In this document: piece after piece, positions 1 through 20,448 of the stretch
Numbering within the stretch: the first letter of the stretch is position 1
How the letters are laid out: each line of letters begins with the position of its first letter
NCBI GenBank assembly: GCA_002269645.1
Contig: NIVC01003530.1
Span: forward strand, 1 to 64,000
Length of the DNA: 64,000 nucleotides
Direction of reading: 5' to 3'
DNA from: Macrostomum lignano
Taxonomy: Eukaryota
Program-made: the position numbers and the translations under genes
Notes under the pieces: generated by a model
The model's input: the letters and a program-made list of their open reading frames with translations, nothing else
What the model was told of the DNA's origin: nothing
Database searches by the model: none

Positions 1-441
1 GATCTGAGCTGCTTGGAGAAGTCCCTCACTGCTGATGTAGTGTGTGGGATCTGAGCTGCTTGGAGAAGTCCCTCACTGCTGCATGGGGTGGTGTGGGATC
101 TGAGCTGCTTGGAGAAGTCCCTCACTGCTGCATGGGGTGGTGTGGGATCTGAGCTGCTTGGAGAAGTTTCTCACTGCTGCATGGGCTGGTGTGGGATCTG
201 AGCTGCTTGGAGAAGTCCCTCACTGCTGCATGGAGTGGTGTGGGATCTGAGCTGCTTGGAGAAGTCCCTCACTGCTGCATGGGCTGTGTGGATCTGAGCT
301 GCTTGGGAAGTCCTCACCGCTGCATGTAGTGGTGTGGGATCTGAGCTGCTTGGAGAAGTCCCTCACTGCTGCATGGGGTGGTGTGGGATCTGAGCTGCTT
401 GGAGAAGTCCCTCACTGCTGCATGGTGGTGTGGGATCTCAC
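1..441 (-). repeat. 49-bp intronic minisatellite (kinase intron 2, copy A)
   Basis: Unit TGGGATCTGAGCTGCTTGGAGAAGTCCCTCACTGCTGCATGGGGTGGTG. Confidence 0.95.
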
Positions 442-831
442 CTGCTTGGAGAAGTCCCTCACTGCTGCCTCATCGAAGGGCCGTCGCTGCAGCTGCATCA
501 GCTCAGAGAGGCTGTGGCCGGAGATCAGCTCGGTGAAGATGCACAGCTTGCCCTTCTGGATGCGCTCAGACTTGAGGAACTGCACGATGTTCGGGTGCCG
601 GATGGCCTTCAGGACGGAGATCTCCGCGTTCTCTATCTTGATGGCCTCGTCCATCAGCCTGGCGCTGCTGGCACCTTCCAGCCTGACGATCTTGACAGCC
701 ACAGTCTGGCGCTTATCGGTGAACGCCTTGTACACCTTGCGAAGCCGCCTGCTCCGAGCAGCTGCTTGTTGCCGTCACCATCGAGAAGGAAGTCCCAGCT
801 GTAGAAGGCGGGGTCCAGAGACGGCCTCGCA
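442..831 (-). pseudogene. Kinase N-lobe exon (exon 2) of ankyrin-kinase copy A
   Basis: Paralogous to 38595-38985 (GAGGF-, VAVK, HPNIVQF). One base shorter than B, with a deletion in the G-loop codons near 741. Confidence 0.88.
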
Positions 832-985
832 CTGAAAGAGGAGAGGGTTGGAGACTGAAGCACTGCGGGATGGCTGCAGAAATGGGGAACTGAGCAGGCA
901 GGGAGAGAGTCTGTCAGGTGATCATTGTGAGCCACTCTTAGCTGAACGAATGCAATTTCCCAAGTGAAAAGTGGAATACGCCTGC

Positions 986-1916
986 CTTGCTGACGGAGTC
1001 TCCTCGGACTGCGCGTCCACCGCCCGCCGCAGCTGCAAGCCCGACATCGCCTGGCCCAGCCTCCGCTCTTCTCCATCACGCTGGTGCCGCCGCTGCTCTG
1101 CGATCCACTCCCGAATCCGAGCTCCGTGCTGAGAGTTCCGCTCTGCGTAGTCGGCCACCGACTTGCCACCGGAATCGAAAAAGTCGAATGGGGCGAGGCC
1201 GAGAGAGTCCGCGATGAGGCGGAGCGAGTCTAGGTCGTGATGCTGAGCAGCCAGGTGAGCAGGTGTGGCTCCGTTTGAGTCTTTTTCCAACAGACAGGCC
1301 GGACCGAGCTCAGAATGAGCCACTTGAGACAGGAGTTGGTCTCATTCATAGCAGCAAAGTGAATGGCAGTGCGTTTGCAATTGCCAGGCTGATGGAAGCA
1401 GTCGGATCCGAGGACTGATTTGAAGAACTGCATGGAATCGGCGCCCTGAAACTTAGCAGCGAGATGGACGGAGTGTCTCCGGCTTGGTCTCGAACGGAGA
1501 GACAGTCGGTTCCGCACTCGTTCACAGCCACTTGAGACAGGAGTTAGTCTCATTCCTAGCGGCCCGGTGAATGGCAGTGCGTTGTAAGTAGCCAGGCTGA
1601 TGGAAGCAGTCGGATCCGAGGACTGATTTGAAGAACTGCATGGAATCGGAGCCCCGAAACTTAGCAGCGAGATGGACGGGAGTGTCTCCGGCTTGGTCTC
1701 GAACGGAGAGACAGTCGGTTCCGCACTCGTTCACCAGCCACTTGAGACAGGAGTTAGTCTCATTCATAGCGGCTTGGTGAATGGCAGTGCGTTGTAAGTA
1801 GCCAGGCTGATGGAAGCAGTCGGATCCGAGGACTGATTTGAAAAACTGCATGGAATCGGCGCCCTGCTTCCAAGCAGCGAGATGGACGGGAGTGTCTCCA
1901 TCTTGGTCTCGAACGG
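986..1916 (-). pseudogene. Ankyrin-repeat/kinase gene copy A, remainder of exon 1 after the Polinton
   Basis: Continues the ankyrin units ([19 protein letters not shown]...) and the C-cap seen in copy B. Three 1-bp deletions relative to B near 1315, 1490 and 1525. Confidence 0.88.
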
Positions 1917-2238
1917 AGTAGAAGGCATGAGGGGGCTTCTGGGACAAAATTTTTCACCTCCTCCATAATCCTTTTAAATCCATCCATATTATCCCTGACA
2001 GAATCAGAAAAAAGGGGGGTCGCACTCGCTCACAAAACATCCTCCACAATCCTATTAAATCCATCCATATTATCCCTGACAGAATCAGAGCATTATCCCT
2101 GACAGAATCAGAGCATAACAGTAGGACACCTGTTATGCTCACTGACACTGACATAATCCACTGACATCCACCCATAGCATCTTCGAAACAATCAGAAAAT
2201 AATCTGCATTCTTCTCCCCACATTCAATCCGCAACGTG
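1917..2238 (+). repeat. Left terminal inverted repeat of the Polinton (degenerate similarity continues to ~2300)
   Basis: Reverse complement of 17548-17952, apart from one extra ~82-bp subunit on the right and a 1-bp homopolymer difference. Confidence 0.95.
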
Positions 2239-2888
2239 CTACCACATCCCTAAAACTTTAAATCCCCTAACCCAGGGTCCTTACCATTGAAAAAAAATAA
2301 ATAATTTTATTATTCATTAGTAAGAATTATATATTTAACGGTTGCACAACTGATAGGATATGTATTAACTATTACAAGATTATCAAAAATGGTAGAAAAA
2401 ACAGACACTATGTAGGATCTGCGTTAGAATTCTTCAACAACATACAGAGCCAGCCTAGCGTTCCTTTGAGCCAGCAGCTAGATTCTCTAACGCCGTTAGA
2501 ATTTTCTATGTGAAAATTTGGTGTGCCCAAGCTTATCATGCGGGAAGCTTTTCACATAGAAAATTCTAACGGCGTTAGAAAATTTCTACCCCCCTCTATT
2601 TAACCATACAGAGCCAGCCTAGCTTTCCTGTGAGCCAGCAGCTAGATTCTCTAACGCGTTAGAATTTTCTATGTGAAAATTTGATGTGCCCAAGCTTATC
2701 TTGCGGGAAACTTTTCACATAGAAATTTCTAACAGCGTTAGAATTTAAAACCCACCGACTGAGTTGCACACAGTACTGAGAAAATTGCTACCCTCCTCTA
2801 CTTAACCAATCGGCTGTCTCCAGTTGTTGAATCTTCTCTTTGAAATTCTAACGCGTTAGAAAAATTCTAAATGAACTGAATTTAAAAA

Positions 2889-3566
2889 TTACACAACTTT
2901 CCACGCAGGATCACTGGCCAAAATTTCTTCTAGAAACTTCATCTTAGAGTTTAGTTCCCTAATTGGCATTGACACCTGTCTCAAGCCTGGGTAGGTAACA
3001 GACAGTTTGTACAGACGAATGTACAAATAGCCAGTTGATTCCTGGATGTTTACATTTTTACACAAATGGGCGAACCGCACTTTAACATCTTGTCCAAAGT
3101 TCTCGGTGCGATAAGTTTTTAGCAGCCGCCCAACTTCGAGAATCCAATGTAGACCTCCAATTTGAGTCTTCTTGTATTTTGCTAGAGCCGCCTTCACCCT
3201 AGTGATGATGTTCTGCTCGCCAGATGGAAGCTGGTGATCAACAGCGTCCATCAGCTGATCAGCTAGTGTTACGCGGGATGCGTACAACTTCTCCCTGAAT
3301 ATCTGCAGATCCGCCATCTTCTTCTGCAGAGCCGCCGCCTTCTTCTCTTCGCTACTCACATTTTGCGCTTCATTCGCTGCGGCGATATCATCAGGGGCCA
3401 TGGCGAAAAACTCGATTGGTAGGTCGCCAGTTTCTAGACCGAAAAAGGTGGTTAGTTCCTCTCTTCTTCTTGCTTGTAGATGTGACGGAATATCCTGTAA
3501 AACTCTTTGTAGCATGGCACAAAGGCCTTGCTTATCTGTCAAATGAAGATTCCACTCGACTTCCAT
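2889..3566 (-). CDS. Polinton accessory protein (225 aa): coiled-coil N-half and a possible DUF3102-like helical C-domain
   Basis: Clean non-repetitive ORF inside the element. The C-terminal pattern ILEVGRLLK...F...C....I..STGYLYIRLY resembles DUF3102 from memory only. Confidence 0.6.
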   Translation of the reverse strand: MEVEWNLHLTDKQGLCAMLQRVLQDIPSHLQARRREELTTFFGLETGDLPIEFFAMAPDDIAAANEAQNVSSEEKKAAALQKKMADLQIFREKLYASRVTLADQLMDAVDHQLPSGEQNIITRVKAALAKYKKTQIGGLHWILEVGRLLKTYRTENFGQDVKVRFAHLCKNVNIQESTGYLYIRLYKLSVTYPGLRQVSMPIRELNSKMKFLEEILASDPAWKVV

Positions 3567-4444
3567 TTTCTAAATCTTCTTGTCTTCTAATCTTCTAGTT
3601 TGGCGGACAATTTCTTAGATCACTTTCAGCGTGCTTAAGTTCCTGCAGTCGTCGTTTCTCAGTCGCAGTTGATGGCATATGCGGGGAGAATCAACCCGAG
3701 TGTTTCTGCATTTGCTTAAATACAGCTATACAGCTAGAAAATTCCAGAAAATTCTTAGACTGTACAATCTTGGAGTCAAGCAGGGAAAAAATAATCGATA
3801 TAGCTCAGTGAACGATAGAACATGAGGCGTGTGAATGTGAGGGTGAGCGATCGATTCCCTCCACCCGCTTGAAGTCCCCATACATTTCCTTGGTTGATTG
3901 GGTTTGTCAAAGCGGAAAGGAAAGCACGCGTGGAACTTGTACATTCGCAAAATCGATTAGAGGGCTGCGCTCCCTCAGCAAATAGCAGTTACCCCACCCC
4001 CCTTCTGCTTCTACTTTTCAAAATGCAGCTGTTGCGCTTGGTTAGGGCTGAGAATAATAGTTAAGCCCTTCCCGACTCAAGCGCCCCTCTCTACCACCCC
4101 CCATATTTTCATACCGTAGAGACCAACTAGGCGGGCCACATTCCGAGGCCAAATCGGCGGGCCGAGGCCAACTCGGCGGGCCAACTGGCCTCGCAATTTG
4201 GCCAATAATCAATATCAATCAAGGAGGGAATCTCAACATACACAGTCCATGCATGCTAATGGCGGCGAAGCGGTTGACTTTTTATTTTCTGCTCTTAGCT
4301 CTCTGGAGAATGAGAATCTCTCTTGTGCGCAACTCTTTAGGGAATAAAAAACTGTACTTACTCAAATCCACACTTGCTCATGCCCTTCCCGATTCAAGCG
4401 CCCTTTCTACCCCCAGCTCTTTCAGCAGTCTTCCCAATTTCTTG

Positions 4445-4891
4445 TTAGGAGCGCACAAAATAAACCCTACTCCCAAGCCTCCGCCCTCTCTCCCCGTGCA
4501 CTCGCCCTCTCTCCCCAAACACCGCCCTCGGCGTACACCCCAACCCCAGTTTTGTCTTACTAAAAATAACAGCTTTAACTAGCTTCCGAGCGATCGACTC
4601 ACGAAATCCGCTTGAAGCCCCTATATTGTCTAGTCTCTTAAGCATTTCTTTGTCCCAACGATTCTTCTCCTCAGGAAAATCTCTATATTTAACGTCGTGC
4701 CACATGCAGACAGAGTCTAGCTCGTTCACAGGCTCATGCCCAGGATGTGGATTATTGTTTTTATCTAGCTGTATTTCAAGTGGATTCAAAGGCCCGCAAT
4801 ATTTATAGCCGGGAAGTGTCCAGCCTTTGTTTGGATGAGGAAGCTTTTCTATCAGTCCATGTGAATCTATTTTACCACCAGAGCGCTGCAT
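4445..4891 (-). CDS. Parvovirus-type phospholipase A2 (adintovirus PLA2X-like), 148 aa from MQRSGG
   Basis: LPGYKYCGPLNPL Ca-binding loop and PVNELDSVCMWHDVKY catalytic HD motif. The listed ORF start (5134) overlaps INT; the ATG at 4891 is the plausible start. Confidence 0.88.
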   Translation of the reverse strand: MQRSGGKIDSHGLIEKLPHPNKGWTLPGYKYCGPLNPLEIQLDKNNNPHPGHEPVNELDSVCMWHDVKYRDFPEEKNRWDKEMLKRLDNIGASSGFRESIARKLVKAVIFSKTKLGLGCTPRAVFGERGRVHGERGRRLGSRVYFVRS

Positions 4892-4921
4892 TATTTTATT
4901 TAAAATTTTCTTTTTAAATAA

Positions 4922-5952
4922 ATGACAGATCAGAAACTTAAAAAACTCTACTACAGCGACAAAGGATTCTTTGTAGGCAAAAATGCCGTTAGTAAACTCA
5001 TGGAGCTGAGTAAGGAACCAAAAGCTACAGTAGAAAAATGGCTCTCTAAGCAGGCTCTCTTTCAAGTCTATTTCCCACCAGTAAAATTTACAAGACCTCA
5101 CTTTAACATCTATAAACCTAACGAGGCGCACCAAGCAGATCTTTTGTTTCTCCCAACGACTCAGGCTACAAGTATGCTCTTACAATTACAGACGTTGCTC
5201 CAGATATAAGGAAGCGAGACCGCTTAAGACGAAGAAGTCAGAAGCAGTTGCAGCCGCCCTCCAAGATATTTATAAAAACTCTCCGCTCACATACCCCAAA
5301 TCTTTATGACCGACCCGGGTAAGGAATTCATGGGTGTAGTGAAATCCCTTATGGAAAAGAAAAACACAGAGATTCGCTATGGCAGAACAAACTTGCACAG
5401 AGACCAGGCTTTTGTGGAAAGATTCAATCTAACTCTAGCCAAGAGACTATTCACTAAGCAGACAGCAAGACTCAAACTGAGTGCGGGCAGTACTATACCA
5501 AGTGGACAGAAAGACTCCCCACTGTTATAGAGCAACTGAACAATGAAGTCACACGCATGACTGGATTGAAACCATCCCATGCAATTAAACAAGACACTGT
5601 CGAACTTAAGGCATCTCATAGAACAGACAACAACACGACAACCCCACACAACACACACAACACAAAACACACCTCGAACTACCCTAAGCTTCCAGGAGTT
5701 GAATCACCATACATACTGACAAACTCTGAGTTTCTACGCTTTTTATATCTACCTGGAGAGCTAGAGAAAGACACCAAAAGAAGAGCTACAGATCCATACT
5801 TCAGCCTTGATGTACATAAAATAGACAGACATTTTACCTCCGACTCCGGTGACTATTACTTTTTATCTCAAGCCTTTAACCCTAAATCCCCCACGCGGTC
5901 ATTCACTAGAGCTGAACTCCTAGTGATACCAGCTGACACAGAAATTAATTAA
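4922..5952 (+). CDS. int: Polinton retroviral-like (rve/DDE) integrase, split by several 1-bp frameshifts in this sequence
   Basis: Joining frames gives HQADLLFLP-NDSGYKYALTITDVA-SRYKEARPLKTKK...TDPGKEF...QAFVERFNLTL...KWTERLPTVIEQLNNEVTRMTGLKP, which contains the D-D-E triad. Confidence 0.9.
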
Positions 5953-5968
5953 AATATTAAAATAAAAA

Positions 5969-6420
5969 ATGACAAAGATTGAAACCAGAACCATCAATAA
6001 ACTCAATAAAATCATTGAATCAAAGAAACCAGGTCTTATATCAATTAAAGGTGCCAAAGTAAAAGTCGATCCCACGCAGCAAATAGTTCAGTGTAATGAG
6101 CAAAGACACAGCATCACAGATGAAAAGTCAGGAGGAATCCTACCATTAGCAGCTCTTATTCCGATCATTGCAGGCGCTGTAAGTGCCGCAGGTGGTGTAG
6201 CTGGAGGTGTAGCAACTGCTGTTAAAGCTGGGAATGATAGAGCCCACCAGCTGGAATTGCAAAAGATTGCAAGAGACAAAGGTATAACAATTAAGGCAGG
6301 AGAGGCTGCCCGATTGATGATTGTGATGATTGTGAGCATGAAAATTCTGTAAGCAAGTCTGACATTGTCAAAGCCATCATGACACTGCACAATGCTGGGT
6401 TTACAATAATGCGGATGTGA
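5969..6420 (+). CDS. Adenovirus pX (mu precursor)-like virion core protein; listed ORF 5969-6352, probable frameshifted C-terminus to 6420
   Basis: KSGGILPLAALIPIIAGAVSAAGGVAGGVATAV parallels the adenovirus pX C-terminal MRGG/ILPLLIPLIAAAIGAVPGIASVAL. An alternative frame continues ...DIVKAIMTLHNAGFTIMRM*. Confidence 0.7.
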
Positions 6421-6541
6421 TGAGGTTTAAAACCCACTTTATCCAGCTTCATAAACCTAAAGCTACTATAGGATGTAGAAACAGTTCAACTTTTCTATCA
6501 GGGTGGTCACCCTCAAAATTTTTTTTATATTTTCGAGAAAA

Positions 6542-9500
6542 ATGCCAAAAGCCAATCCAGCAAGAGATTTAGTCAACAAATATTTTTCAAAAGGCGTCTC
6601 ATTTCAAGACAAAAGTAATTACTAAGAGAAGCATGCAAACAAAAGTTCAACACCGACCCTGGTCACCTGGGAAGCTATGAAAAACAGTTGGAAATCATCA
6701 ATCAATTAGAATCAAACCAGTATGCGCCTATAAAAAATTCTGCAAAGGAACACCAAGAGAGGAGTCGCAACTTAGTTAACAAATATGAAACTCTCACTGG
6801 TGAAAAAGCAAAGTACCCACAAAATAAGCAGGAACAAGAGAAATTAGAGCAATTAATCCATTTAAAAGAGTCGGAGCTTGCCACTGAAGAGATTAATTTT
6901 GCACAGACGAAGTTTACAGAACATTACATAGAGTACACAATCCCAATAACGGCACCAACGGTACCACCGCAAACATCTACGACTATAAAGACAGCATCCA
7001 ATCAGTTGTTGATCACACACTCAAAACACGCAAGACTTTAAACTACAGATATCATTCAAGATTGCGTTTTATATGCCTGCAAAACCCACTGAGCATCTCG
7101 AGTATTACATGACAACAAAGGCAAAGCCATTCACCCCAACAGACACACTGGATCCTTTCCTTCAAGATGTCAATAAGAAAATTGAAGCGTTTACATCCAG
7201 AGGTTCCGGATGGGTCGTGGGAGGGATTCAAAGAGCGACTGTCATGGTCATGAAATATGACCCACTTAAAGCCTCCTCTTATATAGAGCTCCCGCATAAG
7301 CTAGCCGGCAAAAAAGCTTGCATAAATGTTAAAAATAAAGACAATTGCTGTGCTCTATGGGCAGTTCTTTCTGCACTTTTTAGTGTACCTCACCACCCCG
7401 AAAGAACCTCAAATTATCAAAATTATTTCAACTACTATCTCATGAATGCGAAAAGAAGGGAATCAGGTTTGACAAAGGAGGCTTGGCGATCTCTCAGATC
7501 CCAAAGCTAGAAGAAGTGTTTAATAACAAAATTAGAATCACAGTCTTTGAGTGGAGTGAAAAAACTGAGAAAGTTCAACCGGTCAGATGTAGCAAAGACG
7601 TTTTAGATCCGAGGGGAAAAGGCGGACTGAAGTGGATCTTCTAGTGATTGGTAATTTACTAGAGGAGGCTCACTATGTTTGGATTAAAGATCTTTCAAGA
7701 CTCATTCACAAGCAGTTGAATAATCATCACGAGGCTGTTGCCATCTGCCGCTTGTGCCTTAAGCATTACAGTGGACCTGAACGCTTTGAAAACTAACAGA
7801 GCATGAATTATCATGCGAGGATCACCCGACAAACTGCTCTCTTCCTTCAGCTGAAGAGAAGTATCTCCGTTTAAGAACTATCACAAGATGGAGAAGCTCC
7901 CATTTGTTGTATATGCTGATTTCGAATGCTCAATCATGCCGGAAACACAAAAACAAACTCAAACTCAAAAACATGTCCCCAATTCAGTAGCATATGCCTT
8001 TATTAATACAAAAGGACTTGTTGAGTATAATTATTTCTTTGGAGAGCAGTGTGTGGAGCAGTTTATTGCCAGAATGTTAGAGTTGCAAAAAGTGATTAGC
8101 ACCCTTCAACCTGTTCCAATAATGATGACTGAGGAGGATGAAAGCAATTTCCTATCAGCAACTCATTGCCACATCTGCAGGAAACATTTAACTTGCACTA
8201 ATATTAAAAACCCCACCGTTAGGGACCACTGCCACTATACTGGGAAATTTAGAGGTGCAGCGCATAACACCTGTAATCTAAAGCTAAAATCGAACATTCA
8301 TGATCTAACGATATTTTGTCACAACGCAAAGAACTATGACATGCATTTAATAGTTGAAAAAATCGGCATGATTCCAGACATACACCTTGATTGCATCGCA
8401 GAGAACAAGGAGAAGTTTAAGTGTGTTGATATTAAACAGGATAATTCGGGTACAGGTAAAATAAGACTGAAGGATTCATATCAATTTCTAGCTGCCAGTC
8501 TAGACGAACTAAGCAAGAATCTAAAAGATGAACAATGTACATATACAAAGATGTTTGCAAGTAAAATTAACAACACTGATGAATCATTTAAACTCCTGAG
8601 AACCAAAGGCTTCTACCCCTATGAAAATATTACTGGGTATCACGTATTTGAAGAAGGTTTACCACCACAGGAGAAGTTCTTTTCAAAGCTAACAGACTCT
8701 GGAATCTCTGACAAAGACTATGAGCACGCGAAGCATGTCTATAATTACTTTAATTGTCAAAACTTCTTCCAGTATCACCTGCTTTACCTCTTCACAGATG
8801 TGTTTCTGCTGGCTGATGTGTTTGAAACCTTCAGATGCACCTGGTACACAGCATATGGCCTCGATCCAGCACATTATGTGTCTCTGCCTGCCACTAGCTG
8901 GGAATCTTTGCTTAAAATGAAATGGGATCAAGATCCAGATTGGTACATTGAACTTCTTACAGACATTGACATGTACAATTTTGTCGAATCGTCAAAGCGA
9001 GGGGGAATCTCAATTTGCACAGTATGCAAAAGCAAACAATCCCTACATTGAATCTTACAATAAGGAGCAGCCCTCAAACTACATTACTTACTTGGACGCT
9101 AATAATCTCTACGGGTGGGCGATGAGTCAAGATCTTCCAGTTAGAGATTTTCGATGGCTACCCTCATCAGAATTAAATGGGACTTTTCATTGGCTGCCAT
9201 TTATGAGGTTGATGTTTACATTCCACCAGAGCTTCACGACTATTTCTCTGACTTTCCACCCTTCCCAGAGAACATCAAGTGCCCGAAAATAATCGAAACT
9301 CCCAATGATAATAATGGAACTTGGCACCTGTCAGGAACAGAAAAAGAACATACAGAGAAACTAACACAGAATCTAAACAACAAGACACGTTACAAAATCC
9401 ATTACAAACTGCTTCATATTTTATCTCACTTGGTTGCAGGGTCACCAAAGTTCACGGGCTCTTACATTTACAGAGGAAGCGTGGATGAAACCCTACATTG

Positions 9501-10342
9501 ATAAGAACACCCAGTTTAGGACCAAAGCAACCAACGACTTTGACAAGAACCTCTTTAAGTTGGCCAACAACTCTGTCTATGGCAAGACTCTTGAGAATGA
9601 GCGGAAAAGAACAAACCTGAAACTTGTTACCTCATCAGAGCCTGATGTTATTCAGGCAAATATGTCAAAGCCAACATTCAAAGAACTCCATATCTTTAAT
9701 AGCTACTTAGGTGTGATCATATTTTACAAAACCAAGGTGACGCTGCGCAAGCCGATCTATACAGGTGTCACTGTTCTCGACGAATCAAAACGTCTGATGT
9801 ACCAGTTCTTCTATGGCATGAAGCAGCAGTACAAGGATAAAATGAAACTCTTGTACACTGACACAGACAGTTTTATTATGGACATTCAAACAGAAGACAT
9901 TTATCAGGACATGCTGCAGCAAAAAGATTTGTTTGACTTGTCTGAGTATGATGAATCTTTCAGGACAGAATGGTGATCAAGTGTTTGACGCCACTAACAA
10001 GAAAGTGATTGGGAAAATGAAGGACGAGATTGCTGGTGACATAATCACTGAATTCATTGGGTTGAGAGCAAAGTCCTATTTTATAAAATGTGAGTCGTCA
10101 GACCCAATAAAAAATCAAAGGGAATTCCGAAACGTGTGGTTAGGAAGGAAATTAATGAAGCTGAATACAGAGACGCCTTGAATTGCAACAAAAAGACATC
10201 ACATGAGTTCTCAAAGCTACAATCTAAAAACCATATTATTCACACAATTCAGCAAAAGAAGATTGGACTGTCAGGTGCAGATAACAAGAGATTCATTTTT
10301 GATGACAATATCAACAGTCTACCGTTCGGGCACTGGAGTTAG
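6542..10342 (+). CDS. polB: Protein-primed family B DNA polymerase (pPolB), fragmented by frameshifts across ORFs 6688, 7073, 7888, 8948, 9154, 9434, 9933 and 10136
   Basis: Polinton N-terminal GSGW...YDPLKASSYIELP...CINVKNKD; ExoI YADFE; Zn-like CHIC...RDHCH...HNTCN; ExoII HNAKNYD; ExoIII YLFTDVFLLADVFE; motif A YLDANNLYGWAM; motif B KLANNSVYGKT; motif C YTDTDS; KVIGKMKDE...EFIGLRAKSY. The 5' start (6542) is tentative. Confidence 0.93.
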
Positions 10343-10431
10343 GTTTAGGAGGTGGGTTAGATTGGTGGATTGGGTTTAGGAGTTGAGATTGGGTTTAGGT
10401 TTAAGAGAAAGTTTAATAAACCTCATAAAAA

Positions 10432-10832
10432 ATGACGACAAATAACTTTCTTGAAGATTTGGCTAACGAACTGGAAATCCCAAACTTTAGAGGAATATTT
10501 ATGAGGGACACTCTGCCTGATTTTCCTCTAAGAAAGGAATGCGGCATCATGAACTTTGACACCACCGATAAGCCAGGATCTCATTGGGTTTGCTGGGTGA
10601 TTGATCCCGATCGCAAGCACAAGTGTTATTACTTCGATAGCTATGGGACGGCAGTACCAGAAGAGCTAAGAAATTATATGAAGGGAAAAAATAATAAAAA
10701 ATTTATCGCTCAGACTTTATTCTCCAAGGTCTTAGCAGTGATATTTGCGGTGAGCTGTGCATGACTGTTTTGTATGCAATGACCAAAACACGAAAGACCT
10801 ACAAGGAAATTATTCTTGGCTGTGTTTCATAG
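10432..10832 (+). CDS. Adenain-like cysteine maturation protease (one frameshift in an A-run near 10700)
   Basis: Catalytic His (GSHW) and Asp (YFDSYG). The corrected frame gives IYRSDFILQGLSSDICGELC (Gln and Cys) ending in TAG at 10830-10832. Confidence 0.9.
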
Positions 10833-10836
10833 GGGT

Positions 10837-11493
10837 TCATTGTGCATTTCTCGTTGTACTTCTCGTTGTCCTTCTTTCCGCATAATGTTGAAAAACTTTC
10901 TCGAGTTCATTTCTCAGCTGACTCATGTCATCAGTACCGACCATGTTCAAGTTCATTCGAATTGATTGTTCATAAAGATCCTGAATGGTTTTGAACTCAT
11001 CCTCTGAAATGAACTTATCCTCGATTGCCCTTGAAATGTACCCTATGATTGATGTGTGCACCCCTTTCTCTTTTACTTGCTTCTCCTGTAGCTGCTTTAG
11101 TTTTTTTCGCCTGTTTCGCGCTACTGCTCCAGTAATTGCTGAAATAAGTCCACATGCAGCACCCACAGAGCCGAGCGGGATTGCGATTGGGGCTGTGATG
11201 ACTGGCAACACTGAGACAGCTGCAGCAGATCCAGATAGAACAGACACAGATCCTAGAATCATATTGCTGTAGTCGAAAAATTTACAGTGGCTTTCATAGC
11301 GTTTAATTTTCTTTGTGTTGTGGAAAATATTTTTTTCAAGATCATCTCGCATTTTTTGAATCTCTACCAGTCGAAACTGTTGAGAGTTACAAGTAATGAC
11401 GGGGTAGAGTTTTTGTTGCTCATATTGGGGTGCACTAGGTGCACTAGGTGTTGTGGGAGCGTTCGGATCATAAAGAGAATTTTGAGCATCCAT
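10837..11493 (-). CDS. Membrane-hairpin protein resembling adintovirus GasderminX-type proteins (218 aa)
   Basis: LYP...FRLVEIQKMRDDLE, then a long hydrophobic hairpin (MILGSVSVL...GLISAITGAVA), a basic RNRRKK and ISRAIEDKFISEDEF. Family assignment is from recollection. Confidence 0.65.
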   Translation of the reverse strand: MDAQNSLYDPNAPTTPSAPSAPQYEQQKLYPVITCNSQQFRLVEIQKMRDDLEKNIFHNTKKIKRYESHCKFFDYSNMILGSVSVLSGSAAAVSVLPVITAPIAIPLGSVGAACGLISAITGAVARNRRKKLKQLQEKQVKEKGVHTSIIGYISRAIEDKFISEDEFKTIQDLYEQSIRMNLNMVGTDDMSQLRNELEKVFQHYAERRTTRSTTRNAQ

Positions 11494-11601
11494 TTTTAAG
11501 GGAATTTTTTTTAAAAAATCGGCAACTAGTTGGTGGTGGTTAGATTTGTTTTACGGTTGATTGCTTCGTCTGCAGTCACGGCAACGGGTCTCTGAATCTG
11601 C

Positions 11602-12345
11602 CTATTCATTATCTGTGAGCTCCATTCTACGCATGATCTCAAACAAGTCGGTTGGATCACTTGTTTCCCTTGTGGTCTGTGGTGCCTCTTCAGCGTCAAT
11701 GTTTTTGAGATTATGCAAGCGTTCAAGACGACCGATTCTTCTCACCGATTTCTGCCATTCGGTAAAAACTAAATCTACAAAGACTTTATTTGCAGTAATT
11801 CTTACTTTGATTTGATCATGCAACGCTGTTGACTGAGTCATGAACTCTTCTAAATTCCTCACTTTACATGTGTTGGTTGCGACGTTTTCTTTAATTCTAT
11901 CATGCAATGCTGTTGACTGGTTCATGAACTCTTCTAAATTCCTCACTTTAACTGCGTTTGTGAAAACTCCTTCTTCAAGAATGCGCATCCGCCTATCAAT
12001 GGAGTTTCTCAGAAGATTAATTGTCGATGCTAAATTTGTTCTTAAACCGTTGATTTGCGAGACTATCGAAGTTATTTCTGACCTAAGTTCATTAGTGCTG
12101 TGATCAAACTGTGCATAAAGCTTATCACTGTCAAACTTCTGTCTAGCTACTTTAAGCCTGAGATCTTCTATGTTTATCTGTAGCTGGTGCATGGAGCGCT
12201 CTAATTGTTTCAGTCTGTTTTTATTCAGTTTGATCTCTGGGATCTTTTCGTCGCTGTTGATATATCGCCTGTCAAGGATGGATACTTGAGCTGATGTAAG
12301 AGCGCTGTTGCCAGAAATGGATTCACCTGCAAAGTTTATTGACAT
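11602..12345 (-). CDS. Coiled-coil protein (247 aa), possible fibre/spike-like
   Basis: Clean ORF with heptad-rich sequence and an internal 28-aa duplication (KVRNLEEFM[N/T]QSTALHD[R/Q]IK). Confidence 0.6.
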   Translation of the reverse strand: MSINFAGESISGNSALTSAQVSILDRRYINSDEKIPEIKLNKNRLKQLERSMHQLQINIEDLRLKVARQKFDSDKLYAQFDHSTNELRSEITSIVSQINGLRTNLASTINLLRNSIDRRMRILEEGVFTNAVKVRNLEEFMNQSTALHDRIKENVATNTCKVRNLEEFMTQSTALHDQIKVRITANKVFVDLVFTEWQKSVRRIGRLERLHNLKNIDAEEAPQTTRETSDPTDLFEIMRRMELTDNE

Positions 12346-12361
12346 CTTTTAATAGCAAATT

Positions 12362-13162
12362 TTAAATTACAGTTCTTTTTTCTTTGCTGATAATCACAAA
12401 CTGGTAAGGCTGATTCCACTTGTCATAGCAAAGATTAACGAATTCCTCTTGTGAAATCTTTCTGCTTGAGTTTTTTGTTGGATTTATGAAATAGGCAGGC
12501 GCAATGACCTCATTGTAAAATCTTTTTAACCTGTCCTGTGGAATGGTTGGAAACAGGAGAATCAGATTGCAGTTCCCACGAATTGTTTTGTTCGGGAGCT
12601 CGAACCAGTTCTGTGCAATGTAAATTACATTACAATTGTTATGTCGCCCTCTTGTAAAATAGTTTTCTATCTGCTTCTGTGGGCCTGTCATACAATCATC
12701 AAAGACGATCAAATGCTTTCTCCCCTTTTCTAGCTCATCTGGTTGGGGTAGAAGTTTGGTCTTTGGATCAGCCTGTGGATCTCCATAGGTGAACACTTTA
12801 ATGTTCTGCCATTTTTCATTGTCTTTGAGGTGCTTTGCATATTCGGCAGCTACAATTTCAGGGTTACTGGGAAGGCTCATTTGGTTATTAAAACATGCAA
12901 TAATGTCCTCTTTGTTCAGCTTGTTTTGAAGCCCTGCAATCAGCATTCTATACTCATCTTGATACAGTGTGGGAGAGTAGATGTGCAGAGTGTCATAGTC
13001 GATAAATCCAGGTCTAAGAAGCATGTTAAAGACTCTGAATGTTTTACCTGAACCTGACGAACCAACAACAATGCATCTGAAGTGACTCGGGATTGACTCA
13101 TGATGAGAAAACTTAATCTGATTACGCGTCCAGTGAGGATTGAAGTCGTTTGAAAAGTCCAT
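12362..13162 (-). CDS. A32/FtsK-HerA-like genome-packaging ATPase
   Basis: Walker A VVGSSGSGKT, Walker B LIVFDD, arginine motif FTRGRHNNCNVIYIAQ, and IRGNCNLILLF. Confidence 0.95.
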   Translation of the reverse strand: MDFSNDFNPHWTRNQIKFSHHESIPSHFRCIVVGSSGSGKTFRVFNMLLRPGFIDYDTLHIYSPTLYQDEYRMLIAGLQNKLNKEDIIACFNNQMSLPSNPEIVAAEYAKHLKDNEKWQNIKVFTYGDPQADPKTKLLPQPDELEKGRKHLIVFDDCMTGPQKQIENYFTRGRHNNCNVIYIAQNWFELPNKTIRGNCNLILLFPTIPQDRLKRFYNEVIAPAYFINPTKNSSRKISQEEFVNLCYDKWNQPYQFVIISKEKRTVI

Positions 13163-13204
13163 TTTTTTCTATGATGAAAAAAAAATAATTAAATAATAAA
13201 TAAT

Positions 13205-13393
13205 TTAGATGTGTCATTTTGGGACTTAGATGTGTCATTTTGGGACTTAGATGTGTCATTTTGGGACTTAGATGTGTCATTTTGGGACTTAGATGTGTCA
13301 TTTTGGTACTTAATTGTGTCATTTTGGGACTTAGATGTGTCATTTTGGGACTTAGATGTGTCATTTTGGGACTTAGATGTGTCATTTTGAGAC
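13205..13393 (+). repeat. 21-bp tandem repeat (TTAGATGTGTCATTTTGGGAC) x~9 inside the Polinton
   Basis: Read directly from the sequence, between the ATPase gene and a core-protein gene. Confidence 0.95.
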
Positions 13394-13436
13394 TAGTCTT
13401 GTACCTTTACATTTCTTGTACCCTCGGAAAGTACCT

Positions 13437-13823
13437 TTAGTCAAATTTGAAACCACTTCCTTTTTTAATGCTTGCTCTCATCTTCTCATAGACTGCAGGG
13501 TCCACACTGTCTGGGTTTGGGGCCAGCGGGGCCAGCGGAGCCAGAGGTTGAATCTCTTGTTTAGGTGTTACAGTATCCTTTATCTTTTTGGCTGCTGTGG
13601 CTACACTGCCAGCCGCTTCGGCAACGTTCTTGATGTTCTCTTTGTTCTCTCCAATGACCTTAAAAATCTTAGCCCCCTGAGCGATCAAATCGGCAAGGCC
13701 ATTCCCGGAGCGCTCTTTTCTTGGATAGTGGCCTGCAGGGAAAAGTCCAGATCCGCGTTTAATAAGATTAAGTTCCTCTTTGTCATAGTATTTGTCAATG
13801 TCTTTTTCGAAAATAAGTGGCAT
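13437..13823 (-). CDS. Putative virion core/membrane-lytic protein with GxG motifs (128 aa from MPLIFE)
   Basis: KRGSGLF, RSGNGLADLIAQGAKIFKVIG (amphipathic helix after GxG) and KKGSGFKFD. ATG at 13823 follows an A-tract. Confidence 0.6.
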   Translation of the reverse strand: MPLIFEKDIDKYYDKEELNLIKRGSGLFPAGHYPRKERSGNGLADLIAQGAKIFKVIGENKENIKNVAEAAGSVATAAKKIKDTVTPKQEIQPLAPLAPLAPNPDSVDPAVYEKMRASIKKGSGFKFD

Positions 13824-13839
13824 TTTTACTTGAAATAAA

Positions 13840-15023
13840 TTATTTTTTGTTGAACCGCGAAAGCAGAAGCTCTCTCGCCCTTTTATCGATGTATTTTCTC
13901 TCAAGCATTTTGTCCAGGATGTTGACAAATTCTTTTCTATTCTCGTCTTTCATTCCGGTCTTTGCCGCTCCTAGAAGAACCGCTACTCGCTTGTAGATTT
14001 CAGCTATTCCTTTTCCAGATTTGGGTGGTTGGTCTTGGGGTTGTGGAGTTGGTTGGGCTTGTGGCTGCTGGGGAGGTGATCCAAAAGACTGCTCACTTTC
14101 AGAGATGGAACTGTCATGTGGCGCCTGTCTTTGTTGAGGTGTGAAAACTCTTTGCTTGATTCTGTTCATTCGATCTGGAGAGTGTTGTTCTAAGTTTGCC
14201 AGTCTGTTGGGTGATCATTTTTATACTTAGCTACTTGAGTCGGATCTGCATTTTCCAGTTGCCTGAGTACTTGTTCTTCTGTGAAATGTTGCTGCTGTTG
14301 TGGCGGTTGCTGTTGTTGCTGTTGTTGTTGTTGTTGTTGTCTTATGACCTCTTCCTGATCCGGCAAACCAAACCATTGTTTAAAGTATTTGTATTTTCTA
14401 AATCTGTTCAAGACAATCCCGTTTTCATGTAAAATTTTCAAAACACCGTTGTTCTTGAGCATATCTATATCCCTATCGAGAGCAAAGGTAACAAGATCTT
14501 TGTAATTTTTGAGCTGCTTTTTAGACGTATTCTCTAGATTTTTAGTCATGTAATCAAGTAAAGTTTGAGTGAACTGGATTCTTTTAGTTTTTGCGCCTTT
14601 ATTGATTGAAATGTTTTCCTTTGTCACTTCAATGTTGTAATCCACCGGTTCCTTGGTAATTTCTTTTCGCCAGGCGCTAATTCCAAAAATATATTTTCCA
14701 TCATCCACTACGGGGCCAAAAAAGTTATCCGTCACTTTCATCTGCACCGGTTGTCCTGGTTCCTGAGCCTGTGGTTGTCCTGGTGAAGATGGGATTTTAC
14801 CCAATGTGTTTTGCAAGTGGCTCTCTTGAATATCATCAACTGCTTCCTTCACAGTGTCGAGGTTTTTCTTCGCTTCTGTGTATCCGGGTTTGTGAAATTC
14901 GGTGGCTGCTTGGACAAACTCATTGTAGGATTGTTGCTCCTTATTTATTAGCCCGGTAACTCGTTTCTCTGCTTGTGCTAGCTTCTCCAATTCAGATATC
15001 TGCTGTGTACTTTTTCGCTTCAT
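13840..15023 (-). CDS. Polinton PZ-like conserved protein; probably one gene split by a frameshift near 14190
   Basis: N-terminal coiled-coil with EFHKPGY, a polyQ stretch, and C-terminal KSGKG...KRVAVLLGAAKTG...EFVNILDKML...I. The two ORFs join with a single frameshift (…NLEQHSPDRMNRIK). Confidence 0.6.
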
Positions 15024-15053
15024 TTCTTATTTTATTTTATTTTTAGTTAAAAA

Positions 15054-16340
15054 ATGAACGACCCACTGACACCAGTTTTCTACAAAATTAACAAGCCTAT
15101 TTTGAGTGATGATAGCACAATCAAAGCGACTCAGGTAAGAGTTCCCAGTCAGGAAAATCAGAATGAAACTAATCTTGGTCCTGGCCAAACACTGACATTT
15201 ACATACAATGGATGTTCGTCTTTGGTTAGTGTGCACAGTCTTAAGAGCGGCTTCCATATGACATTTCAATTCAAGACAAAGGGTGGTGCGGATGCGGCTC
15301 GTGCTAACGTTGACAAGCATGATGCGGATGTGGCTCTGATCAGTAACTTTTGGGCGTACATGTTCAAGGAGTTTAGTGTATCGAATGGGAGCACTGAGTT
15401 GGAGCGAATCGCCAACTTTGGAATTGTCTATGACGCTCATTGTTTGATCGAGAATCCTGATTTTATTCAGTTGGGAAGTGGTGCGGGTTTTATCGCAGAT
15501 GAAAAAGAAGGAGACACCAATGACAGTGGCTATAAAAAGAGGAAGAAGAGATACAACTATGCATTGCAAGGTGCAGATGATGCTGCTAAAAACCCGCTGT
15601 ATCGGTCTGTTGATGTATTTGTACCACTGAGATTCATGAGTGGATTCTGTAATACATTTAATCGACTGACTAGTAACTTTAGCTACACCTTTAGGATGAC
15701 TAGAGATGATCGCAGTAGAGTGTTGTGGACTGGGGCGGATCACACAAGGATGGAGGTGAAGCTAACCGGAATCGAGCTGTATTTGGAAGTCATTGAGCCA
15801 AAGACTGCACTAAAAGCGGATTATCTTAAGGCAATAGAGAAGGACATTGATGTTGCATACACGGCCTACATGTGTCGAGATGAGCGAAACGAAACTAGAA
15901 CAAACATCTGCATTAAAGAGGGATCATGCAGCAATCCACGGTATATTATTATTAACATGAGAAACCCAAATAGCATTATACGCTACATGCATGGAGACGT
16001 GCGGTCCATTCAGCATGAAATCAGTGATAATCTTTACCCTGCACTGCCACAAAATGGAGATTTCAGTCAGAACAAGATTAGCAAATTTTACAGCGAGTTG
16101 GTCGACTTGGCTGTGAAAGAGAACAATGGAATTGCTATCACTGCTCTTCAATATGGAACTCTATATCCGATGTTTGGCGCTGATGTGTCTGCCAGACAAA
16201 TGCCTACTGATAACAGCCCTGTGAATATCGTGACTAACATTGAAAGGACTACCGCAACACCCGTGGACCTGTACATTATCTATGCATTTGAGAGGAAGGT
16301 GAAGCTTAACATGATCAACAATTCATCCAGTAAAGTTTAA
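15054..16340 (+). CDS. Major capsid protein (double jelly-roll, Polinton PY/hexon), 428 aa, intact
   Basis: Size and position fit, with the pattern DDSTIKATQ...NLGPGQTLTF...LISNFWAYMFKEFSV..GSTELERIANFG and beta-rich composition; lies directly upstream of the penton-like gene. Confidence 0.82.
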   Translation: MNDPLTPVFYKINKPILSDDSTIKATQVRVPSQENQNETNLGPGQTLTFTYNGCSSLVSVHSLKSGFHMTFQFKTKGGADAARANVDKHDADVALISNFWAYMFKEFSVSNGSTELERIANFGIVYDAHCLIENPDFIQLGSGAGFIADEKEGDTNDSGYKKRKKRYNYALQGADDAAKNPLYRSVDVFVPLRFMSGFCNTFNRLTSNFSYTFRMTRDDRSRVLWTGADHTRMEVKLTGIELYLEVIEPKTALKADYLKAIEKDIDVAYTAYMCRDERNETRTNICIKEGSCSNPRYIIINMRNPNSIIRYMHGDVRSIQHEISDNLYPALPQNGDFSQNKISKFYSELVDLAVKENNGIAITALQYGTLYPMFGADVSARQMPTDNSPVNIVTNIERTTATPVDLYIIYAFERKVKLNMINNSSSKV

Positions 16341-16364
16341 ATATTTTTTTTGTGGGTGAAAAAA

Positions 16365-17228
16365 ATGGAAGCTATAGCCGAAAGACTAAACAATATTATT
16401 TCGCACTCCAAGGAGAGCATTCCTATTACAATAACTGGGCGGATTAATGACTCAAACGGGATATTTGTTCAAAAATTAGAGCAGGCGATTAGCCTGGATC
16501 CAGGTGCTAATTACCATGTCTATCTTAACGACTTCACTGGTTGGTCAAACGTTCCCAATGTGACGGCAGCAAATAATAAGTTTTATTACAAATGGAAAGG
16601 TGCAGCAGCAGAACCTGTGGTATTCCCTGTGAGCACGCAAAGTGTGGATACCTACAATTACTTTCAAGAAAACGTCTTTACTAAAAGAGGCCATTTTGAG
16701 ACACCTGATATGAGTAAGCCAGAGAAGAAACTGTTCCCTGTTAAACTAACCTATGATCTCACTGTAATGAGAGTGGTCATGCAAGTTCACAAAGATGCGG
16801 AGGTTGAGTTTAAAGATGACACTTGGTATAGGGAATTGGGATTCGTGAAGAAAGTTTATAAGGCAGAATCCACAGCGCGGACTGTCACTCAAGCATCGGG
16901 GGCCGTTAGCATGGCCCGGGAAAGTGTACGCGGTTTGTTCTTAGCACCCAATATAGCAGACATTGTAAAGGGTTTGAATATTCTAATCAGAACTAATCTC
17001 AGTCTTGATTGGGTATTTAAGGGAAAGCGAACTAATATTTTGTACAACATCTCCAACTCTGTAGCTGGAGGACAGATGGTGGTAGAGAAACCAAATCCAG
17101 TGAAAAGAGTTGTATTGAGTAATAAGGAGATTCACGAGATTGTGCTTCAGTTTGAGACTGAAGATGGGATGGGCGTTGATTTTAATGGGGAAGAGTTTGT
17201 ATTGACGTTAATCATTGAGAGAATGTGA
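16365..17228 (+). CDS. Minor capsid protein (penton, single jelly-roll, Polinton PX), intact
   Basis: AISLDPGANYHVYLNDFTGWSNVPNVTAANNKFYY and C-terminal IHEIVLQFETEDGMGVDFNGEEFVLTLIIE are typical Polinton penton patterns. Confidence 0.8.
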   Translation: MEAIAERLNNIISHSKESIPITITGRINDSNGIFVQKLEQAISLDPGANYHVYLNDFTGWSNVPNVTAANNKFYYKWKGAAAEPVVFPVSTQSVDTYNYFQENVFTKRGHFETPDMSKPEKKLFPVKLTYDLTVMRVVMQVHKDAEVEFKDDTWYRELGFVKKVYKAESTARTVTQASGAVSMARESVRGLFLAPNIADIVKGLNILIRTNLSLDWVFKGKRTNILYNISNSVAGGQMVVEKPNPVKRVVLSNKEIHEIVLQFETEDGMGVDFNGEEFVLTLIIERM

Positions 17229-17232
17229 GAAA

Positions 17233-17499
17233 TCACAATTGCCTAATGATTTCTGCAAAGTTATAGTAGCTGTCATAATCTTTTACATAGGTTACTCCAT
17301 ACTTATGAAACCAATGTCTTTGGAGAGCTTGATTAATATTAGGGACATTGATTTGAACGTCGGGCCAATATTTTCTCATGTATTCGCTGCATTCAAGTTT
17401 GCATCGGTACTTACTCTTGTAATTAGGCTCGTGCGTTTTGTAATAAGAACCTGGAGAGACAACTGGAAACATTTTTATTGAAAATTTAATTTTTTTCAA
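17233..17499 (-). CDS. Small orphan ORF (79-88 aa) convergent with the penton gene
   Basis: Tyr/Trp-rich, non-repetitive ORF filling the gap before the right TIR. No recognised motif. Confidence 0.4.
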   Translation of the reverse strand: MKKIKFSIKMFPVVSPGSYYKTHEPNYKSKYRCKLECSEYMRKYWPDVQINVPNINQALQRHWFHKYGVTYVKDYDSYYNFAEIIRQL

Positions 17500-17547
17500 A
17501 GGGTAAGGACCCTGCGCTGATGATTTAAAGTCTTAGGGATCTGGTTT

Positions 17548-17952
17548 CACGTTGCGGATTGAATGTGGGGAGAAGAATGCAGATTATTTTCTGATTGTTT
17601 CGAAGATGCTATGGGTGGATGTCAGTGGATTATGTCAGTGTCAGTGAGCATAACAGGTGTCCTACTGTTATGCTCTGATTCTGTCAGGGATAATGCTCTG
17701 ATTCTGTCAGGGATAATATGGATGGATTTAATAGGATTGTGGAGGATGTTTTGTGAGCGAGTGCGACCCCCCTTTTTTTCTGATTCTGTCGGGGATAATA
17801 TGGATGGATTTAGGTGGATTATGGAGGACGTTTTCGGAGCGAGTGCGACCCCCCTTTTTTTCTGATTCTGTCAGGGATAATATGGATGGATTTAAAAGGA
17901 TTATGGAGGAGGTGAAAAATTTTGTCCCAGAAGCCCCCTCATGCCTTCTACT
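17548..17952 (-). repeat. Right terminal inverted repeat of the Polinton
   Basis: Inverted copy of 1917-2238 with internal tandem subunits (TGATTCTGTCAGGGATAATATGGATGGATTTA...). Confidence 0.95.
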
Positions 17953-19021
17953 GAACGGAGAGACAGTCGGTTCCGCACTCGTTCACCAGCCACTTGAGAC
18001 AGGAGTTAGTCGCTCTATTCACAGCGGCACAGTGAATGGCAGTGCACTGGAGTCGGCCAGGCTGATGGAAGCAGTCGGATCCGAGGACTGATTTGAAGAA
18101 CTGCATGGAATCGGCGCCCTGCTTCCAAGCAGCGAGATGGACGGGAGTGTCTCCTTGTTGGTCTCGAACGGAGAGACAGTCGGTTCCGCACTCGTTCACC
18201 AGCCACTTGAGACAGGAGTTAGTCTCATTCATAGCGGCATGGTGAATGGCAGTGCGTTGGAAATTGCCAGGCTGATGGAAGCAGTCGGATCCGAGGACTG
18301 ATTTGAAAAACTGCATGGAATCGGCGCCCTGCTTCCAAGCAGCGAGATGGACGGGAGTGTCTCCATCTTGGTCTCGAACGGAGAGACAGTCGGTTCCGCA
18401 CTCGTTCACCAGCCACTTGAGACAGGAGTTAGTCGCTCTATTCACAGCGGCACAGTGAATGGCAGTGCACTGGAGTCGGCCAGGCTGATGGAAGCAGTCG
18501 GATCCGAGGACTGATTTGAAAAACTGCATGGAATCGGCGCCCTGCTTCCAAGCAGCGAGATGGACGGGAGTGTCTCCATCTTGGTCTCGAAAGGAGAGAC
18601 AGTCGGTTCCGCACTCGTTCACCAGCCACTTGAGACAGGAGTTAGTTTTTTCATTCGTAGCGGCCCAGTGAATGGCAGTGCGTTGGACTTGGCCAGGCTG
18701 ATGGAAGCAGTCGGATCCGAGGCTGCGGTGAATGAGCTCCATCCATGACTCATCTCGAAACAAGGCAGCCAGGTGCACAGGAGTGTTGCCTCTTTCGTTG
18801 GTGCAGGTGAGGCAGTCGGGTCCCAGTTTCTTAATAAGAGCCTCAAAGCAGCGGAGACCGTCGGATAGATAGGTCACGTGATGAGCAATGGACTGCTCCA
18901 ACTGTTTGATGTTGAGTGCGAAGTTGGCGTCGAGCTGCCGGCAGAGGGGGAAGAGGCGGCCTGCGTCCTTGGCACGGAGGGCTGCAGCGACTTCTTCGCG
19001 CACTGAGGCTTGCCGGGCCAT
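17953..19021 (-). pseudogene. Ankyrin-repeat/kinase gene copy A, 5' part (interrupted by the Polinton)
   Basis: MARQASV... N-terminus identical to copy B. The ankyrin array is cut at the GAACGG TSD. Confidence 0.9.
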
Positions 19022-19070
19022 GTCTGCAGAGTGGCGCGGACTGCGAGCGCGCTGGGCTGCTCTGTGCCGC

Positions 19071-19077
19071 TTTTATA
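19071..19077 (-). promoter_or_regulatory. TATA box (TATAAAA) ~50 nt upstream of the ankyrin-kinase copy A ATG
   Basis: CCGCCCATATAAAAGCGGC on the minus strand, identical in copy B. Confidence 0.55.
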
Positions 19078-19215
19078 TGGGCGGTGCGGAGAGGCGGGCT
19101 GAGCGGCACCCGAGCCAGACTACTGTGAGTAGGCAAAGCAGAGTAAACTGCAGATGCTGTGCCGAGTCTGTCAGTTCTGAGCTCGGAACTCAGCGAGACC
19201 GACTGCTGGCCGCAG

Positions 19216-19935: not shown

Positions 19936-20448
19936 CCTGCATAAAGGGAAGGGGAAACTAAGATTGCGGTACAGGAGAATGGGGACAAATTGAAGAACAA
20001 AATGAGCACAAGATATATATCCAGCGCTCCGAATACTGACTCGAACTCAATCCAGCACCTGAATTCTCGAATGTGCAGATCACATGCAGCAGCTGCTCAG
20101 CATCAGTGAGCACTGTTGCACAGGAATTCATGACAGCCGATCAGAGGCCCCTGACGTCACCATGAGCGCCGTCATTGCAGAGCAGCATCAGTGAGCAAGT
20201 GAGCACAGCGCAACTCACAGAGGAATATTTTACAATCGATTGCAGCTCATAAATCAGACAAGCTGAAGTCGACACTCAGAGCGCAGCCTTCTCAGCAACT
20301 GCTTGAGCACCTTTGTTTTGCATCAGCCAGCAGGTGGACAGCAGCTTGGAGTGGAGCCACCGATTTTGAGCACTCTGCTTGCTGAGTAATGTACATTAAT
20401 GTACTGATGTGCTTAGTGCTGTACTTTTGCAATAAACCGTTATGTTTT

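Follow-up and report, generated by a model that had tools for sequence, protein, structure and literature searches.

Does the flatworm Macrostomum lignano carry a complete and recently integrated Polinton-like virus in contig NIVC01003530.1 (assembly GCA_002269645.1), or only the remains of one? We addressed this question in positions 1 to 64,000 of the forward strand of this contig (hereafter the window), for which an initial annotation had described a complete endogenous adintovirus/Polinton with intact ends. At a probability of about 0.72, we conclude that the window holds a likely young copy of a Polinton/adintovirus, probably one among tens, which inserted with a 6-bp target-site duplication (TSD) into an ankyrin-kinase gene of M. 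lignano, and that the broken reading frames of its assembled sequence are errors of the assembly.

Boundaries, gene content and copies of the element

The element is real and well bounded. It shows the terminal marks of Polintons/Mavericks, namely terminal inverted repeats (TIRs) with AG...CT ends and a 6-bp TSD (Table 1). The two TIR arms are identical at 322 of 322 aligned outer bases and less alike in their inner ~60-70 nt (in the left arm beyond position 2238). The GC content of the element is 0.41, compared to 0.57 in the remainder of the window. An uninterrupted paralog of the insertion site is present in the same window, where the left flank aligns to 38147-40080 and the right flank to 40075-42057. 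As these alignments overlap by exactly one GAACGG at the empty paralog, the duplication is a true TSD and not a chance repeat.

The Polinton insertion interrupted an ankyrin-repeat exon of the ankyrin-kinase gene. The host is M. lignano itself: a UniRef protein of this species shares 99% identity with a DDR-kinase exon of the window, and the best-scoring match of this exon outside Macrostomum is 56% identical. The element thus has an animal host, which is one of the marks of the Eupolintoviridae. The insertion is likely young, because the TIRs are identical over the 322 aligned bases and long contigs from other sequencing runs differ from the window by few substitutions (2-8 per 460-1100 nt). 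Both the termini, TIRs and perfect TSD described in the initial annotation and the recent integration proposed there are therefore supported, the former by the AGTAG/CTACT ends and the empty paralog as well. A point against a young insertion is that identical TIRs may also come from homogenisation during replication, in which case they date the last replication only.

The genes are those usual for a Polinton, and profile and structure searches identified every item of the gene list previously proposed, i.e. integrase (INT), protein-primed polymerase (pPolB), protease, ATPase, major capsid protein (MCP), penton and entry or core proteins. Among them are a double jelly-roll MCP, a single jelly-roll penton, a packaging ATPase and a cysteine protease (the latter in two frames), all of which characterise Polintons/Mavericks. 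The reading frames of MCP, penton and ATPase are unbroken in the assembled copy.

Structure modelling predicted viral capsid folds for both MCP and penton. The MCP model, obtained from an alignment of 96 sequences with a predicted local distance difference test (pLDDT) value of 93.9, matched the MCP of Sputnik virophage (E 5.9e-20, template-modelling score 0.65), followed by the MCPs of PBCV-1, iridovirus and mavirus. Among its matches in BFVD, the MELD and adintovirus entries had an identity of 8-12% in the structure alignments, and a sequence search of the PDB with the MCP gave 0 matches. The penton model (pLDDT 78.9, alignment of 14 sequences) aligned with the mavirus penton over 237 residues (Z 13.2, root-mean-square deviation 6.2). 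The top 6 rows of this search were all capsid structures with Z 11.4-13.2, followed by a row with Z 7.9. Its matches in BFVD were pentons, minor capsid proteins and the adomavirus LO5, and in Atlas only clusters that were unnamed or labelled DUF5901. A lack of jelly-roll folds in these two proteins had been named beforehand as a finding that would overturn the initial annotation; the predicted structures of both proteins matched capsid folds.

The genes for replication, integration and maturation were recovered in pieces. Those of INT match positions 2-236 of 347 in order in a profile built from 17 integrases of related loci, the 26 related loci used throughout being IMG/VR loci found through pPolB. 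The three locus proteins closest to INT match Pfam rve, and a Pfam scan of the INT pieces themselves returned no relevant match and no chromodomain. The retrovirus-like (rve) integrase of Polintons/Mavericks is thus present, though broken as assembled. For pPolB, 9 profile-matched pieces span positions 124-1214 of 1219 in order, with at least 8 frame switches between them. Exo and Pol motifs are visible in these pieces; a Pfam scan of most of them gave no relevant match. An OTU domain at the PolB N-terminus is one of the marks of the Eupolintoviridae; here, the N-terminal pieces include some with a homolog-profile match and candidate Cys/His motifs, for which no Pfam OTU match was obtained, and further ones with no profile match. 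The protease has homologs in 11 of the 26 related loci (best E 9e-23). Its His and Asp motifs share a frame, and the sequence switches to a different one before the catalytic-Cys motif.

Together, INT, pPolB and protease switch frame 13 or more times as assembled. The earlier claim of a complete and intact gene set, made with no mention of these breaks, consequently does not hold for the assembled sequence, where INT is divided into 5 pieces, pPolB into 9 or more and the protease into 2, with a further core gene probably split as well. With its broken core open reading frames (ORFs), the assembled sequence also departs from the definition of an 'intact' Maverick given in PMC8097293, although the breaks are probably assembly errors.

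The element is probably not alone in the genome of its host. Between 64 and 74% of the words sampled from 4900-12400 were contained in 20 of 24 listed runs (8 studies, one organism). Summed contig depth, which is not a copy number, was 489-2054 over the body of the element versus 5-11 over 2520-4419 in run X1, and 6480-22353 versus 159-1098 in run X9. Joints of internal deletions skip parts of 3.8-4.6 kb, and 240 substitution rows represent the spread of variants among the contigs. No position with an accumulation of molecule starts or stops was seen, though contigs by their nature cannot reveal the ends of free linear genomes. These data indicate that many copies share the part from INT to ATPase and that most of them lack the segment at ~2520-4420. 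Because of the low depth over 2520-4419 and the joints skipping 3.8-4.6 kb, we regard the region from the left TIR to the gene for the phospholipase A2-like (PLA2-like) protein as a variable cargo slot, occupied here by palindromic repeats and a 225-aa ORF. The family looks multi-copy, and the element described here is likely one of tens of copies.

Origin of the frame breaks

To judge the frame breaks, contigs of four runs from four studies were compared with the window over 1760-13150, which covers 11.4 of the 16 kb and leaves MCP and penton outside. We hold it to be quite probable that the breaks in INT, pPolB and protease are assembly errors; most of the breaks that invalidate the claim of completeness are probably of this kind. 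This explanation is favoured because the flank gaps are one-sided, the window is the shorter sequence at gaps, gaps and substitutions are at parity, and the breaks cluster by position. Alignment with the paralog showed 18 gaps over 1937 nt of the left host flank, 16 of them bases missing from the Polinton-bearing copy, and 0 gaps over 1248 nt of the right host flank (p 1.3e-4 and 1.3e-3). The window was the shorter sequence in all 12 gap rows shown, out of 89, and in 11 of these 12 it was so in all four runs. Nine of the 10 shown gap rows inside profile-mapped genes lie in frame-switch zones, which make up 11% of the length of these genes. In long contigs, gaps were about as numerous as substitutions (5 versus 4 in 1106 nt, 3 versus 4 in 787 nt). 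By position, 13 frame switches fall into the left 5.9 kb and 1 probable switch into the right 6.4 kb (p 6e-4). Published M. lignano assemblies are PacBio-based, and REAPR rates 32-64% of their bases as error-free (PMC5730564).

Several observations weigh against assembly error. The contigs derive from all copies and not from this locus, and they cannot prove that this particular copy is unbroken. In DNA runs, the alternative form is often found on part of the depth only. Of the 13 mapped switches, 6 coincide with one of the 12 gap rows shown (9 of 13 if loose ends are included), with 77 rows beyond those shown. Homopolymers are not over-represented at the gaps, of which 4 of 12 are located at runs of >=3 against a background of 27%. 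A 785-nt contig over 2884-3668, within the supposedly error-rich stretch, shows zero differences, which may mean that short-read polishing was effective on unique sequence. Finally, the probable split at ~14.2 kb falls beyond the interval covered by contigs.

Among the alternatives, a truly decayed provirus accounts best for these observations, although we consider it unlikely. Real small deletions after the insertion would have inactivated INT, pPolB and protease and left a non-autonomous element; elsewhere, the family may still have whole copies. The 13 or more frame switches of the assembled sequence, window substitutions at which nearly all contigs differ and the lack of homopolymer bias at gaps all fit such a history, as does the degraded state of the majority of vertebrate Mavericks (PMC8097293). 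The same one-sided loss of bases, however, extends through the left host flank and ends on the right, the TIRs are identical, and indels are as common as substitutions. Parity of indels and substitutions far exceeds what is usual in neutral decay.

An early domestication, with the host selecting for the capsid module (MCP, penton and ATPase) while the replication and integration genes decay, is very improbable. It would account for 13 switches in the half with INT, pPolB and protease compared to 1 probable switch in the capsid half, but this asymmetry tracks position rather than function and includes the left host DNA. Furthermore, the broken genes include the protease, a requirement for virions, and intact TIRs together with a multi-copy family point to a mobile element. 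Just as improbable is an assembler misjoin that placed the element in the ankyrin gene, or its origin from a contaminating organism, since the exact 6-bp duplication agrees with the empty paralog and the element was found in 20 runs of 8 studies on one organism from 2015-2024, notwithstanding the error-rich assembly, the GC content unlike that of the host and the contaminant adintoviruses known from other datasets (PMC8502044).

Further open reading frames and genomic surroundings

Table 1 Positions in the window of the element, its genes and repeats, and the interrupted host gene (a dot marks features without strand)
Feature	Position	Strand	Remarks
Host ankyrin-repeat gene, 3' part, then kinase exon	412..1910	-	
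Left TSD GAACGG	1911..1916	+	single copy at empty paralogous site 40075-40080
Polinton/adintovirus-type element	1917-17952		16,036 bp; first bases AGTAG, last bases CTACT
Left TIR	1917..2301	+	AGTAG start; internal 82-nt and 23-nt subrepeats
Non-coding palindromic repeats	2441..2875	.	nested, 163-nt spacing, beside left TIR
225-aa ORF, cargo in variable segment	2889..3566	-	no Pfam match above cutoff
Parvovirus-type PLA2-like protein	4445..4891	-	predicted entry factor; PF08398 E 4.5e-14; homologs in 6/26 loci
rve-type INT	4922..5952	+	5 pieces as assembled, 4 frame switches
pX-like core protein	5969..6352	+	PF05829 E 3.2e-7
pPolB	6363..10342	+	PF03175 E 1.7e-10, PF02945 E 1.5e-4; broken as assembled
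Adenain-type maturation protease	10432..10830	+	PF00770 E 0.003; 2 frames as assembled
218-aa protein, long hydrophobic segment	10837..11493	-	homologs in 2/26 loci; profile E 3e-16
247-aa predicted coiled-coil protein	11602..12345	-	internal 84-nt duplication; no match in 26 loci
A32/FtsK-type packaging ATPase	12362..13162	-	single ORF; PF04665 E 3.6e-6; Walker A and B motifs; homologs in 14/26 loci
Intergenic 21-bp tandem array	13163..13415	.	~10 copies
128-aa probable core protein	13437..13823	-	several Gly-x-Gly motifs (putative protease sites); sequence only
Two overlapping frames	13840..15023	-	277 aa (14190-15023) and 109 aa (13840-14169)
MCP, double jelly roll (predicted)	15054..16340	+	one 428-aa ORF; weak PF21738 E 2.9e-5
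Penton (minor capsid protein)	16365..17228	+	one 287-aa ORF
Right TIR	17486..17952	-	CTACT end; one 82-83-nt subrepeat more than left TIR
Right TSD GAACGG	17953..17958	+	
Host ankyrin-repeat gene, 5' part, severed by insertion	17959..19021	-	Ank_2 E 2.9e-30; 97.5% identity to paralog, gapless

The remaining proteins of the element are less well assigned. The pX-like protein weakly matches the core family encoded after the penton in related loci (hhalign E 0.001, probability 22). The 218-aa hydrophobic protein presumably resembles the 'cupiennin' class of adintoviruses. The 277-aa and 109-aa ORFs are probably the two parts of a single PZ-like core gene that is split at ~14.2 kb, as tentatively suggested by a weak match of the 109-aa piece to the C-terminal end of a family conserved among the loci (E 0.014; hhalign E 7.5e-4, probability 25) and by its lack of the A-rich start context seen at other ORFs. 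Profile searches with the 128-aa, 247-aa and 277-aa ORFs gave no significant match. In the element as a whole, AAA directly precedes the ATG at 8 of 13 ORF starts, compared to 38 of 584 ATGs, and two divergent gene pairs are separated by AT-rich spacers of 30 nt (4892-4921 and 15024-15053).

The 225-aa ORF of the cargo slot belongs to no named Atlas family (low shared-feature counts) and has no match in the 26 related loci; we take its C-terminal part to be reminiscent of DUF3102-type helix-turn-helix proteins. Just upstream of its start, contigs of two runs guessed to be RNA end at 3668 and 3678, and a DNA contig reaches 3843. These contig stops are a weak hint at a transcript. Both of these runs extend over 30 of 30 bins including the TIR but, consisting of contigs only, are uninformative on expression and on the ranking of genes. 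None of the listed runs that contain the sequence is recorded as RNA.

The surrounding window contains a tandem segmental duplication, in which 1-29400 and 38100-49000 are 95-98% identical and include the ankyrin-kinase gene, satellites and a DDR-type receptor kinase. The second copy (38100-49000) has no Polinton and provides the empty site. A pol region of a Gypsy-type long terminal repeat retrotransposon (RNase H, integrase) is located at ~22700-24800 in the first copy and is apparently absent from the second. At 38807-41194 on the minus strand and 37648-39074, a host gene encodes many near-identical ankyrin units of 70-71 aa followed by a protein kinase domain. The insertion-site motif is present in 10 ankyrin repeat units of the window, 9 of which are empty. 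Between the two copies of the duplication, glutamine synthetase-like host exons were recognised from their translation at 31846-34157, together with an intron containing a long short-unit tandem repeat.

Significance and relation to known Polintons and adintoviruses

Following the established Polinton model, the copy would be released as linear DNA, which pPolB would replicate from the TIR ends and the rve integrase would re-insert. Packaging of genomes into double-jelly-roll capsids with penton vertices would fall to the ATPase and maturation of the core proteins to the protease, and entry may be aided by the PLA2-like and hydrophobic proteins. One can speculate further that M. lignano harbours a Polinton virus family that is still active, has a divergent capsid lineage, swaps cargo beside the left TIR and forms particles in laboratory worms. 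We regard this as doubtful; if true, Polinton virions and their control by PIWI-interacting RNAs (piRNAs) would be directly testable in a transgenic, stem-cell-rich flatworm model.

The architecture of the element is unsurprising, because complete Polintons are common in invertebrate genomes, with >20,000 pPolB1 copies in 960 genomes (bioRxiv 10.1101/2023.08.22.554363). Where assemblies have broken frames, such families can escape surveys that accept only a long pPolB ORF; the survey cited demanded 900 aa. Macrostomum, flatworm, Platyhelminthes and Schmidtea were not found in the consulted part of the supplement of PMC8502044. No report of a Polinton in Macrostomum was found in the open-access literature, though supplements of genome-wide surveys may list it, and this agrees with the earlier suggestion of an invertebrate host in which such viruses are poorly described. 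Planarian Polintons are contained in Repbase, and the occurrence of Polintons in flatworms is therefore probably no novelty. The value of the finding lies in the host, as M. lignano is a model animal that is kept in culture, is open to transgenesis and has been the subject of piRNA studies. With little direct evidence of Polinton particles in animals so far, a young family whose capsid genes are unbroken offers a practical starting point.

The largest piece of pPolB has 4257 homologs, which are mostly 37-43% identical and, where named, come from insects and molluscs. For the MCP, a word search gave 9 matches, all of them unnamed, and a profile search gave 538 at E <=0.001 and 23 at 1e-30. The nearest MCPs are named 'hypothetical protein' at most, and no MCP loci were confirmed among 170 pattern matches in viral_contigs and 210 in metagenome_contigs. 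A quick tree was calculated from 43 rows, selected from ~160 matches and mostly full-length, with branch support from the Shimodaira-Hasegawa-like approximate likelihood ratio test (SH-aLRT) and no bootstrap. It placed the MCP of the window in a 10-row clade on a long branch (SH-aLRT 100, branch 1.05). From these sequence comparisons, the MCP appears to belong to a divergent clade of unnamed environmental proteins. The same clade contains P0001-P0009 and P0130 from Logan, ENA and JGI, of which P0007 and P0008 are 43-44% and seven others 70-78% identical to it; all come without names, hosts and gene context.

With ~16 kb, ~400-bp TIRs, 6-bp TSD, pPolB, rve integrase, ATPase, protease, MCP and penton, the element resembles the Polintons/Mavericks (Polintoviricetes). 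Intact Mavericks of vertebrates have a mean length of 16.9 kb and 402-bp TIRs (PMC8097293). Unlike those described in the same source, which end in (AG)3 or (AGT)2, the element has AGTAG...CTACT ends, and its gene order differs from the two-module layout of vertebrates. Adintoviruses (PMC8502044), which were renamed as family Eupolintoviridae (PMC12451622), share with it an animal host, adenain, FtsK, hexon, penton, integrase, PLA2-like and pX-like proteins and a hydrophobic accessory protein. In contrast to adintoviruses, its integrase has no detected chromodomain, and its MCP has only the low identity to named MELD and adintovirus entries of BFVD given above.

The marks of the two adintovirus classes are mixed. 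Besides the class of PolB, GasderminX and cupiennin mark betadintoviruses and PLA2X marks alphadintoviruses. The weak PF03175 match of pPolB, a likeness described for the Beta class, and the presumably cupiennin-like 218-aa protein lean towards Beta. A PLA2-like gene is a mark of the Alpha module in PMC8502044, where, however, PLA2 and pX form a PLA2X fusion instead of the separate genes found here. We conclude that the element is a Polinton/Maverick and likely a member of the Eupolintoviridae. Of the identity first proposed, the assignment to Polintons/adintoviruses stands by its defining features, and the intactness does not hold for the sequence as assembled.

A comparable gene content was found in the Polinton-like IMG/VR contigs L006, L009 and L014, which have the same type of pPolB (35-39% identity), protease, ATPase and penton. 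L009 and L014 also carry the PLA2-like gene, and L006 and L014 the hydrophobic protein. In another IMG/VR contig (L003:10220-11254), a PLA2-like domain and a maturation protease are combined in one 344-aa ORF. The MCPs of L006, L009 and L014, in contrast, are ~22% identical to that of the window and fall outside its clade, and the gene order of these contigs is different from that of the M. lignano element.

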